58,336 nt of DNA, from positions 1-58,336 of IMG/VR virus record IMGVR_UViG_3300028196_000015; one strand, given 5' to 3'. Position 1 is the stretch's first letter, and each line of letters begins with the position of its first letter. The notes under the pieces are model-generated. The model had not been told where the DNA came from, ran no database searches, and worked only from the letters and a program-made list of their open reading frames with translations. This document shows positions 21,094 through 54,291 of the stretch, in pieces. The position numbers were made by a program, and so were the translations under genes. Source of the DNA: a virus. Taxonomy: Duplodnaviria; Caudoviricetes.

Positions 21094-21165
21094 AGCCTCT
21101 GACAAGATTTGAACTTGCGACCTGAGCTTTACAAAAGCCCTGCTCTACCACTGAGCTACGGAGGC
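21094..21165 (-). tRNA. tRNA-Thr(TGT)
   Basis: GCCTCCGTAGCTCAGTGGTAGAGCAGGGCTTTTGTAAAGCTCAGGTCGCAAGTTCAAATCTTGTCAGAGGCT; anticodon TGT; one C-A mismatch in the acceptor stem; CCA not encoded. Confidence 0.93.
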
Positions 21166-21168
21166 ATA

Positions 21169-21242
21169 CGGGATTGATGGGACTTGAACCCACGACTTCC
21201 TGCGTGACAGGCAGGCGCTCTAACCAACTGAGCTACAACCCC
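21169..21242 (-). tRNA. tRNA-Asp(GTC)
   Basis: GGGGTTGTAGCTCAGTTGGTTAGAGCGCCTGCCTGTCACGCAGGAAGTCGTGGGTTCAAGTCCCATCAATCCCG; anticodon GTC; CCA not encoded. Confidence 0.95.
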
Positions 21243-53683: not shown

Positions 53684-53724
53684 ATTTTACACAAAAAATG
53701 GGAGGTTGTCAATAAACCTCCCAT
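53684..53724 (-). terminator. terminator overlapping a sigma70 promoter
   Basis: ATGGGAGGTT-TATTGAC-AACCTCCCAT-TTTTT; TTGACA (53712-53707), 17 nt, TAAAAT (53689-53684). Confidence 0.8.
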
Positions 53725-53748: not shown

Positions 53749-53916
53749 TCACTTAGTATAAAGACGACCACGATAGCAGAATGTACCGTGTGTTTCCTTA
53801 CTCTCTACACAACGTGTCGAGTACTCAACACCACGATATGAGGTGTGAGTAATCTGTGCGTCGTGCAAAGCAGATGCTTTATTAATCTGCTTCTTGATGA
53901 TGTTTAGTGTGTTCAT
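53749..53916 (-). CDS. DUF4278-family small protein (two YRG motifs)
   Basis: Manual translation MNTLNIIKKQINKASALHDAQITHTSYRGVEYSTRCVESKETHGTFCYRGRLYTK; AGGAG RBS at 53928-53924. Confidence 0.85.
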   Translation of the reverse strand: MNTLNIIKKQINKASALHDAQITHTSYRGVEYSTRCVESKETHGTFCYRGRLYTK

Positions 53917-53978
53917 TTGGTTACTCCTGAAGTTGGGTGAAAATTAACCTTCTCTCGTTTCCGAGGATCCGTGTTTTC

Positions 53979-54208
53979 CCGTTCCTTCAGTCGTGTGCGT
54001 CCCATGGATAACACTCAGGTGAAGATTCCTTTACGGTTTCTATCAACTCTACCTTGAAAGCATTTGAGATATTCTCGTTTGCTTTCATCCTCAGGATAAT
54101 TCCATCGGTTTGTTGGCAGGTGAGTGTTGTATAGAATAATAGTTCTAACATAGGATGAACGGCTCCGTTCCTACGACTTACTTGCGTCCTCCTTACGGGG
54201 GATGAACG
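53979..54208 (-). ncRNA. glutamine riboswitch-like RNA (glnA / Downstream-peptide class), twin aptamer
   Basis: Two CGUUCAUCC...GGACGCA...GGAACGG units, AAGUAAG and GAAG E-loop strands, upstream of a YRG/DUF4278 peptide. Confidence 0.8.
53987..54151 (-). CDS. 54-aa protein embedded in the riboswitch
   Basis: MLELLFYTTLTCQQTDGIILRMKANENISNAFKVELIETVKESSPECYPWDAHD; two Cys; GGAG upstream. Confidence 0.7.
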   Translation of the reverse strand: MLELLFYTTLTCQQTDGIILRMKANENISNAFKVELIETVKESSPECYPWDAHD

Positions 54209-54216
54209 TATGGTAT

Positions 54217-54245
54217 AGTCTACCACTAATATTTATGTATGTCAA
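54217..54245 (-). promoter_or_regulatory. sigma70 promoter with nested late-promoter box
   Basis: TTGACA (54245-54240), 17 nt containing ATAAATA, TAGACT (54222-54217). Confidence 0.75.
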
Positions 54246-54256
54246 GGTCTACACAC

Positions 54257-54291
54257 AAAAAAATTGGGAGGAATTTCCCCCCCCCAATTTT
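54257..54291 (-). terminator. rho-independent terminator
   Basis: AAAATTGGGGGGGGG-AAAT-TCCTCCCAATTTTTTT. Confidence 0.75.

Follow-up and report, generated by a model that had tools for sequence, protein, structure and literature searches.

A probable nested twin glutamine-I riboswitch with a gene in its inner stem-loop in T4-like cyanophages

A gene enclosed by a nested twin aptamer

The 58,336-nt stretch of DNA analyzed here (the window) comes from a virus of the Caudoviricetes (Duplodnaviria), IMG/VR record IMGVR_UViG_3300028196_000015. On its minus strand, the region 53979–54245 carries the elements of a glutamine-I (glnA) aptamer interleaved with a small open reading frame (ORF). This locus is probably a nested "twin" glutamine-I riboswitch of T4-like cyanophages, in which a gene lies in the loop of an inner P2-type helix (P2') and which acts through an anti-Shine-Dalgarno (anti-SD) expression platform. 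An earlier note, made from the letters of the sequence alone, had proposed for this region two interlocked glutamine aptamers that enclose an entire protein-coding gene, folding either in tandem or as an outer aptamer that shares its P3 helix with an inner, circularly permuted one. All of the motif positions that it gave could be confirmed on the minus strand.

All coordinates below refer to the window, and features are on the minus strand unless stated otherwise. The RNA begins with box 1, CGUUC (54204–54208), the 5' strand of the outer P1, followed by a bulged A and by the P2 hairpin of the outer aptamer (54187–54202), which is hypervariable among relatives with one covarying base. Next comes CGCAAGUA (54179–54186), which provides the CGC strand and AAGUA, i.e. 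the junction J2/3 with the 5' half of the E-loop. This type of J2/3 segment is invariant in 224 unique loci, which is partly an effect of locus selection. The 5' strand of P3, AGUCGU (54173–54178), is followed by AG and by the inner hairpin P1' (54157–54170), composed of box 2 (GAACG, 54170–54166), the loop GAGC (54165–54162) and box 3 (CGUUC, 54161–54157). The first G of this loop is a candidate linchpin G. A single A separates box 3 from the 5' strand of P2', UCCUAUG (54149–54155), which includes the start codon of the inner ORF. This ORF of 54 aa plus stop (53987–54151; AUG 54151–54149, UGA 53989–53987; phrog_504) has a GGAG ahead of its AUG (54166–54163). Its last codons contain the 3' strand of P2', CAUGGGA (54000–54006), a second CGC strand plus AC that form the inner junction within D-A-H codons (53995–53999), and the 3' strand of P3, ACGACU (53989–53994). 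The 3' half of the E-loop, GAAG (53985–53988), is overlapped by the stop codon, and box 4 (GAACG, 53984–53980) closes the outer P1; with the next G, at the linchpin position, it covers 53979–53984. The strands of P1, P2' and P3 were assigned from sequence, alignment and fold.

Covariation and folding of the nested structure

The nested fold is the minimum free energy (MFE) structure of the 234-nt stretch (–63.6 kcal/mol, z-score –2.96), equalled by one of 200 shuffled sequences. The 426-nt RNA of phage S-TIM5 likewise adopts it, both cross-ORF helices included, in its MFE structure (z-score –2.98). Covariation was analyzed in an alignment of 148 sequences, consisting of the window and 147 of the 177 usable unique loci (178 unique frames, one of them unusable); 30 near-duplicate rows of the S-RIM8 type were left out. 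In this alignment 97.1% of the cells of the nested structure are paired, against 29.7–52.3% when the partners are slid by 1–3 columns, and the covariation score of the nested structure was reached by none of 500 shuffles.

Two helices carry most of this signal. The junction pair of the inner hairpin (box 2:box 3) is G-C in 129 rows and C-G in 19, and is never unpaired; among the 224 unique parsed loci the two boxes read GAACG/CGUUC in 202 and CAACG/CGUUG in 22, with no mixed combination. The fourth pair of the cross-ORF helix P2' is C-G in 97 rows, U-A in 34, U-G in 14 and G-C in 2, with one gap and no unpaired row. None of the four core pairs of P2' has an unpaired cell, and pairs 5–7, present in the window, are optional. 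The outer P2 is formed by hypervariable hairpins that retain their pairing, the third pair being C-G in 105 rows, U-A in 12, A-U in 8, U-G in one and unpaired in 6. The outer P1 (box 1:box 4) shows its C-G/G-C/U-A/U-A/C-G pairs in 143–147 of the 148 rows, and two rows that appeared unpaired (L398 and L349) are a parsing artefact, having been cut at CGTTGA within the P2 loop. In P3, of 6 bp in the window, one pair is G-C in 144 rows and G-U in 4, and the others are invariant. P1 and P3 hardly vary, so that covariation speaks neither for nor against these helices. The structural description of the nested twin is well supported. Both long-range helices proposed across the ORF are present in the nested MFE structure, and covariation in the alignment speaks for P2', P3 being invariant. 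In three loci (L011, L034 and L038), the box 2 region reads CAACC-GUUC-CGUUG, which corresponds to a 4-bp stem with a 6-nt loop or to a C·C mismatch.

The outer aptamer and its detection by Rfam

All the consensus elements of glutamine-I (glnA) are present in the outer aptamer (54208–53980). Through it the locus belongs to the glutamine-I class. At the gathering threshold, Rfam reported two tRNAs in the window and no glutamine-riboswitch match. In E-value mode, RF01739 reached 28.5 bits (cut-off 35), a score that covers the first half only and leaves P3 collapsed, and RF01704 (glutamine-II) scored 20.6 bits. The Rfam comparison suggested at the outset hence recovers the glutamine-I class for one half of the element, below the cut-off. 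This is the single sub-threshold RF01739 match in the whole 58-kb viral fragment. Annotation by covariance models misses the locus because the gene interrupts the aptamer. In compact relatives devoid of an ORF, RF01739 aligns the outer aptamer with a 38–48-nt insertion in P3 and gives 43.6, 42.9, 40.3 and 38.4 bits in four of six loci, in agreement with the class first assigned to the parts; the remaining two score 30.9 and 30.1 bits for a single unit only. None of ten ORF-bearing loci of the window type is detected at the gathering score. In a symmetric type described below (L200 type), three of three are detected, through unit 1 (the first half) only, and unit 1 alone scores 42–45 bits. One viral contig with a compact twin also contains a PhotoRC-II RNA (RF01717, 57.1 bits; L306:1021–1116).

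Distribution and architectural variants

The locus was matched by blastn in 409 (701-nt query) or 360 (351-nt query) of 50,697 phage records, and all the matching records are Synechococcus or Prochlorococcus cyanophages. Similarity begins at 54210 in many of the listed records and at 54188 in others, and ends at 53978 in most. For the inner ORF, 259 relatives were found in IMG/VR, of which 80 were retained. More distant Kyanoviridae (S-RIM8, S-B64, S-RSM4, S-WAM1 and P-TIM40) share these RNA ends, and the small ORF between them is a different one or has diverged strongly; IMG/VR contains 162 relatives of the S-RIM8-group ORF type and 6 of the P-TIM40 type. The S-WAM1-type ORFs end upstream of the 3' RNA segment, and the RNA is kept. 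A 14-base pattern searched in host genomes gave at least 120 matches; those listed were from unrelated bacteria and none had the twin context, a result that is uninformative on cyanobacteria.

The complete set of twin elements is present in 153 of 172 protein-anchored IMG/VR loci (L004–L175). The remainder comprises five loci without unit 1, considered further below, and others that are contig ends or variants. A motif-anchored scan of viral contigs yielded at least 120 loci: 75 are window-like, 30 have a P2' ORF and no box 1 within 110 nt, 7 are compact and ORF-less, 6 are incomplete and 2 could not be parsed. For the class of 30, loss of the outer aptamer was considered and rejected, as box 1 was found 207–239 nt upstream (mostly about 212 nt). 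It lies there directly 3' of a promoter, and an ORF of 65–77 aa (mostly 66 aa) fills P2, with its AUG in the 5' strand of P2 and its stop codon in or adjoining the 3' strand. This double-ORF class amounts to 27 unique loci, including phage S-TIM5, and indicates that ORFs can occupy P2', or both P2 and P2'. The AUG has the same stem position in P2' and, in this class, in P2. In the compact ORF-less twins, of 86–96 nt, P2' is a simple covarying hairpin and all elements are retained, including CGC, which is there free of codon constraint. These comparisons show the ORF to be cargo within a compact twin RNA.

A symmetric lineage (L200:671–960, L420, L435 and L437) carries CGGAAGUA (AAGUA) and GAAG in both units. 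It further has two 8-nt segments, neither of them self-complementary, that match one another at 6 of 8 positions. Given this shared helix, canonical geometry demands box 1:box 4 and box 2:box 3, which results in two complete aptamers, the inner one circularly permuted. The cross-ORF P2' of this lineage, of 8–11 bp, shows covariation from locus to locus, and its expression platform is of another kind, a hairpin directly 3' of box 4. The symmetric lineage, the compact ORF-less twins, the ORFs in the first P2 and the anti-SD helix go beyond what had been noticed in the earlier note.

The inner domain as a possible second sensor

The inner domain keeps CGUUC, the bulged A, the UCC/GGA base of P2', CGC and the GGAACGG strand with its flanking Gs in 224 of 224 unique loci, and the P1' loop begins with G in every one of them. 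The sole variable helix position of P1' is the junction-side pair, which corresponds to C5:G36 of glutamine-II. According to passages of Huang 2019, C5:G36 and U4:A37 are the only pairs of the glutamine-II pseudoknot region that are not more than 97% conserved. In the solved structures, as described there, glutamine is contacted by two pairs of the CGUUC/GAACG helix (C1:G and G2:C), by the CGC-strand G that lies in the groove of this helix, and by a long-range pair in which the G 3' of GAACG takes part (Huang 2019). The inner module repeats the nucleotides that form this pocket. Its core features are also found where no ORF is present and in S-WAM1-type loci with an earlier ORF stop, and therefore represent RNA constraints. 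Both halves of an inner E-loop were found in the L200-type lineage only. A glutamine pocket in the window-type inner domain is uncertain; a second functional glutamine site seems somewhat likelier than its absence.

The locus could instead be a single ordinary glutamine-I riboswitch in which only the outer aptamer binds glutamine. The inner module would then be an inert structural spacer that remains from an old duplication, and the ORF a passenger in a variable loop, unlinked to regulation. Rfam indeed handles the inner module as a plain P3 insertion, hypervariable P2-type hairpins tolerate long insertions, and the ORF cargo varies between phages. One locus (L218) even has a canonical single aptamer ahead of the same downstream gene family. 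However, a spacer needs none of the features (CGUUCA, the UCC/GGA base, CGC, GGAACG and the loop-initial G) that are kept throughout the 224 loci and in the ORF-less forms, nor does a passenger account for the constant position of the AUG in the stem of P2' and, in the double-ORF class, of P2. The missing E-loop of the window-type inner junction is in line with an inert module, but the L200-type lineage has full E-loop halves on the inner side. We thus consider an inert insertion unlikely.

Nested versus tandem register

The same boxes can also be paired in a tandem register (box 1:box 2 and box 3:box 4). Then 19 of the 148 aligned sequences are unpaired in each of the two P1 helices, and the junction pair is mismatched in both helices in 22 of the 224 unique loci, in which the nested register is perfect. 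No covariation specific to the tandem register was found in the alignment. Of the two folds put forward originally, covariation, MFE and the Rfam alignments of compact forms favour the outer aptamer with an inner circularly permuted domain over the simple tandem one.

It could be imagined that both registers are used, the tandem one in one state (for example co-transcriptional or ligand-free) and the nested one in the other, and that their exchange regulates the inner ORF. Both registers have equal pair counts in most loci, box 1:box 2 pairing is predicted in a 50-nt nascent transcript before box 3 exists, and unit 1 alone is recognized by RF01739 (28.5 bits here, 42–45 bits in the L200 type). 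The double mismatch in 22 loci and the lack of tandem-specific covariation make such a switch rather improbable. Two independent tandem glutamine riboswitches, each folding by itself, are very improbable. Such doublets are common, with 157 counted in Sherlock 2022 (PMC9481103), and true ones occur in viral contigs (e.g. L190 and L207), where the units are 6–9 nt apart. In the nested twin, however, the spacing is 3–5 nt, neither unit has a P3 hairpin of its own, and covariation favours box 2:box 3. In the window type, moreover, each unit is incomplete: GAAG and the 3' strand of P3 are missing from unit 1, AAGUA and the 5' strand of P3 from unit 2.

The inner ORF

The inner ORF lies in the P2' loop with its AUG in the stem and its UGA in the P3/E-loop strand, as had been proposed, and the check for coding selection was positive. 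The ratio of nonsynonymous to synonymous polymorphism (pN/pS) is 0.27 (38 unique coding sequences, 53 codons) and 0.23 (50 unique coding sequences, 64 codons), with variation mostly at third positions. The ORF is thus a genuine coding gene under purifying selection. In its last 15 nt there is no synonymous variation, and a nonsynonymous first position (Asn/His) varies. The last five codons and the stop coincide with the P2' 3' strand, CGC, the P3 3' strand and the E-loop, and they are frozen because these RNA elements occupy them. That there is no RNA element, and that conservation comes purely from coding of the small ORF and its neighbours, as the overlap of the 3' elements with ORF codons might suggest, can practically be dismissed, since synonymous sites of the last 15 nt are constant while a nonsynonymous site varies, S-WAM1-type ORFs end earlier with the RNA kept, ORF-less forms keep all elements, and the 5' elements are non-coding. 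A protein-driven conservation of the 3' part was rejected on the first three of these grounds.

The S-RIM8-type ORF belongs to phrog_13397, and both this family and phrog_504 are of unknown function. No Pfam family was matched by the inner protein. Its invariant residues are C12, E35, C47, A52 and D54. An AlphaFold2 model has three short helices (mean predicted local distance difference test score 81.2) and contains the two conserved Cys; Foldseek with this model gave no match in the PDB. The three ORF families present the same layout, with a hydrophobic N-terminus, a Cys, about 35–40 residues and a second Cys. Profile-profile comparison between them gave E-values of 1e-4 to 1.5e-3 with probabilities of 17–57%, which is suggestive only of a common origin. 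The GGAG that had been taken as the ribosome binding site of the inner ORF is found in 197 of the 224 unique loci and is thus not a conserved feature. Contigs of relatives from metatranscriptome libraries span parts of the locus, for example 53965–54193 and 53804–54004; they have no bearing on transcription, its ends or its strand.

Expression platform and proposed mechanism

The last two bases of P3 and the E-loop GAAG form the sequence CU(G/A)AAG, which holds the ORF stop (CUGAAG, 53985–53990, in the window). Its complement, (C/U)UU(C/U)AG, ends on the G with which the downstream GGAG starts; in the window, CUUCAG (53932–53927) overlaps the downstream Shine-Dalgarno (SD) sequence AGGAG (53928–53924), the whole covering 53924–53932. 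This alternative anti-SD helix has six of six pairs in 222 of 226 unique leaders. Its variable position is G-C in 114, G-U in 65 and A-U in 46, never A-C, and A-G in one row that is likely mis-parsed (Fisher p = 1.9e-17, not corrected for phylogeny). The helix is present in the ligand-free MFE structure of 10 of 11 full leaders. Enforcing the aptamer in these 11 leaders gives a state that is 0.3–11.9 kcal/mol less stable than the free MFE, counting secondary structure only.

The downstream gene (53749–53916), preceded by a 63-nt spacer, encodes a 55-aa IF17-like protein of phrog_545. Its match to PF14105 (DUF4278) is weak (20.1 bits, E-value 8e-4; Pfam cut-off 25.3), and the homologue in P-TIM40 carries a DUF4278 annotation. 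An association of glutamine riboswitches with DUF4278 has been described, as has the glutamine ON switch of gifB, in which ligand binding melts an inhibitory duplex (Klähn 2018, PMC6212724). The arrangement of the anti-SD helix here matches this published gifB logic. In the absence of glutamine, the anti-SD helix would form and translation of the downstream gene would be damped. With glutamine, P1, P3 and the E-loop would lock and the SD would be freed, turning the IF17-like gene ON as in cyanobacterial gifB.

The embedded AUGs are each directly preceded by a CGUUCA box, and the 5' leader of the double-ORF class consists of little else than box 1. As the approximately 10 nt ahead of the inner AUG consist of box 3, a strand of a ligand-dependent helix, glutamine should depress initiation of the inner ORF. 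Its lower initiation would give reciprocal control of the two genes. A ribosome that reaches the inner UGA would sit on CUGAAG and box 4 and would have to melt both cores as well as the anti-SD helix; completion of the inner ORF would in this way reset the switch. The most far-reaching version is a two-site, domain-swapped sensor in which the P1 helices double as leaders of the P2-embedded genes, the outputs are reciprocal, and ribosome transit erases the sensor and unmasks the SD. We put this forward only tentatively, as a minority possibility.

Two side observations concern the downstream leader. Its start AUGAAC (53911–53916) is complementary to GUUCAU of boxes 1 and 3 (54202–54207 for box 1), and box 1 is paired with the downstream start codon in the ligand-free MFE structure of the 308-nt leader. 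Among 230 unique leaders the start reads ATGAAC in 171 and ATGAAT in 14. The start codon may be masked a second time in this way, or the complementarity may simply reflect a conserved Met-Asn. The stretch from box 4 to the SD contains an additional small hairpin, CUCG-GAAA-CGAG (53954–53965), with which the spacer, counted to the end of the start codon, reaches 59–71 nt versus 34–44 nt in most relatives.

Several observations weigh against the nested twin riboswitch with its two outputs. Five near-identical contigs (L058, L059, L061, L064 and L067, about 735–775) lack unit 1 and keep the ORF and the downstream gene; the stop codon of the upstream gene directly adjoins box 3 there, followed by the ORF. 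This looks like deletion or recombination between repeated CGTTCATCC boxes, and indicates that the full twin is dispensable in some phages. The window remains below the Rfam cut-off, with 28.5 bits, and its insertion of about 190 nt prevents scoring of the outer aptamer. P1, P3 and most junction nucleotides are invariant and hence give no covariation signal. That J2/3, P3 and the boxes do not vary is moreover partly due to the choice of loci by motif: L296–L415 were selected by an exact junction motif, and parsing required the boxes. The exchange of the box 2/box 3 junction pair may have arisen once and then been spread by recombination. In the window-type inner junction, A-A/C-A and CG replace AAGUA and GAAG, so that there is no E-loop, and a loop of just 3–5 nt closes the inner P1' (3–4 nt in 223 of 224 loci). 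Of the 224 loci, 27 have no GGAG ahead of the inner AUG. Modelled SD accessibility differs little between the two states: it increases from 0.33–0.36 in the free state to 0.40–0.55 in the aptamer-enforced state in 6 of 11 leaders, and is equal or lower in the other 5. Glutamine binding, two-site cooperativity and the reciprocal toggle are inferences from the sequence.

Flanking features

The locus is preceded by an intrinsic-terminator-like hairpin (54260–54291, terminator prediction) at the end of the upstream gene (phrog_485). The sigma-70-like promoter noticed earlier was confirmed as TTGACA-17-TAGACT (54217–54245; 10/12, with TG before the –10 box), and the putative transcript start can be placed a few bases ahead of box 1. 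A candidate near-match to a T4-type late box, with seven of its eight letters, is readable in the sequence. A terminator-like hairpin lies past the downstream gene (53698–53724). Within 53684–53724 a terminator-like hairpin is readable on both strands, and it overlaps a strong promoter-like site, TTGACA-17-TAAAAT (11/12), of the next gene (phrog_878). Elsewhere in the window, two neighbouring tRNA genes (21094–21165 and 21169–21242; 64.5 and 73.2 bits) are typical of T4-like cyanophages.

Significance

Passages of McCown 2017 give only two glutamine aptamers in cyanophage genomes and state that phages rarely use riboswitches, and passages of other phage papers mention the glutamine riboswitch in passing or in other contexts. 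This contrasts with the 360–409 of 50,697 phage records and the hundreds of viral contigs found here. If the two-site reading were true, riboswitches would be common rather than rare in cyanophages, and the locus would exemplify a class of riboswitches in whose architecture coding and sensing are interleaved. Its unusual features are a nested permuted core sharing P3, genes in aptamer stems, and a stop codon in the E-loop/anti-SD strand. It could reveal the interplay of translation and metabolite sensing on a single RNA and could show how a cyanophage reads the nitrogen status of its host while expressing a likely glutamine-synthetase inhibitor. The compact ORF-less twins of 86–96 nt are ready-made material for studies of binding stoichiometry and structure.

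Comparison with known systems

To our knowledge, no riboswitch aptamer carries a gene in one of its stem-loops. Homing-endonuclease ORFs sit in the loops of group I introns, and in the RNA phage MS2 long-range RNA pairing couples the translation of neighbouring genes. With these systems the locus shares a coding sequence in a helix-closed loop and a ribosome transit that would open a long-range helix affecting another start; they are ribozymes or viral genomes, whereas this RNA is a putative metabolite sensor. Full-text literature searches found neither a gene inside a riboswitch aptamer nor a nested or permuted glutamine aptamer, in agreement with the impression of the earlier note; the supplements of Weinberg 2010 and Sherlock 2022, which lay outside these searches, could mention such cases. 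As far as checked, the nested twin topology, the genes in P2 stems and the overlap of stop codon, E-loop and anti-SD strand are undescribed.

With glutamine-I (RF01739) the locus shares P1 (CGUUC/GAACG), the bulged A, P2, CGnAAGUA, P3, the GAAG E-loop and the G after GAACG, together with a position upstream of a DUF4278/IF17-like gene; by analogy it would probably be a translational ON switch as well. The loop of P3 is short in glutamine-I, whereas P3 here encloses a second aptamer-like module and a gene in a stem-loop. Tandem glnA RNAs have been reported (Weinberg 2010), and Sherlock 2022 (PMC9481103) regards its 157 doublets and 4 triplets as pseudo-cooperative complete riboswitches. Doublets have in common with this locus two P1/P2/CGC cores per leader and a potentially steeper dose response. 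They are, however, complete riboswitches side by side, while the cores are nested here, with one shared P3 and the inner core circularly permuted. Glutamine-II (Downstream-peptide motif, RF01704) has the same ligand-pocket nucleotides. It needs no E-loop, receives its GGAACGG strand from a distant segment, and its aptamer can be split into two RNAs, according to passages of Huang 2019. Its fold differs, being an H-type pseudoknot, and the window scores only 20.6 bits with that model. The tandem glycine riboswitch likewise combines two homologous aptamers for one ligand with one expression platform and inter-aptamer contacts. Its aptamers are serial, being neither nested nor permuted, and contain no ORF.

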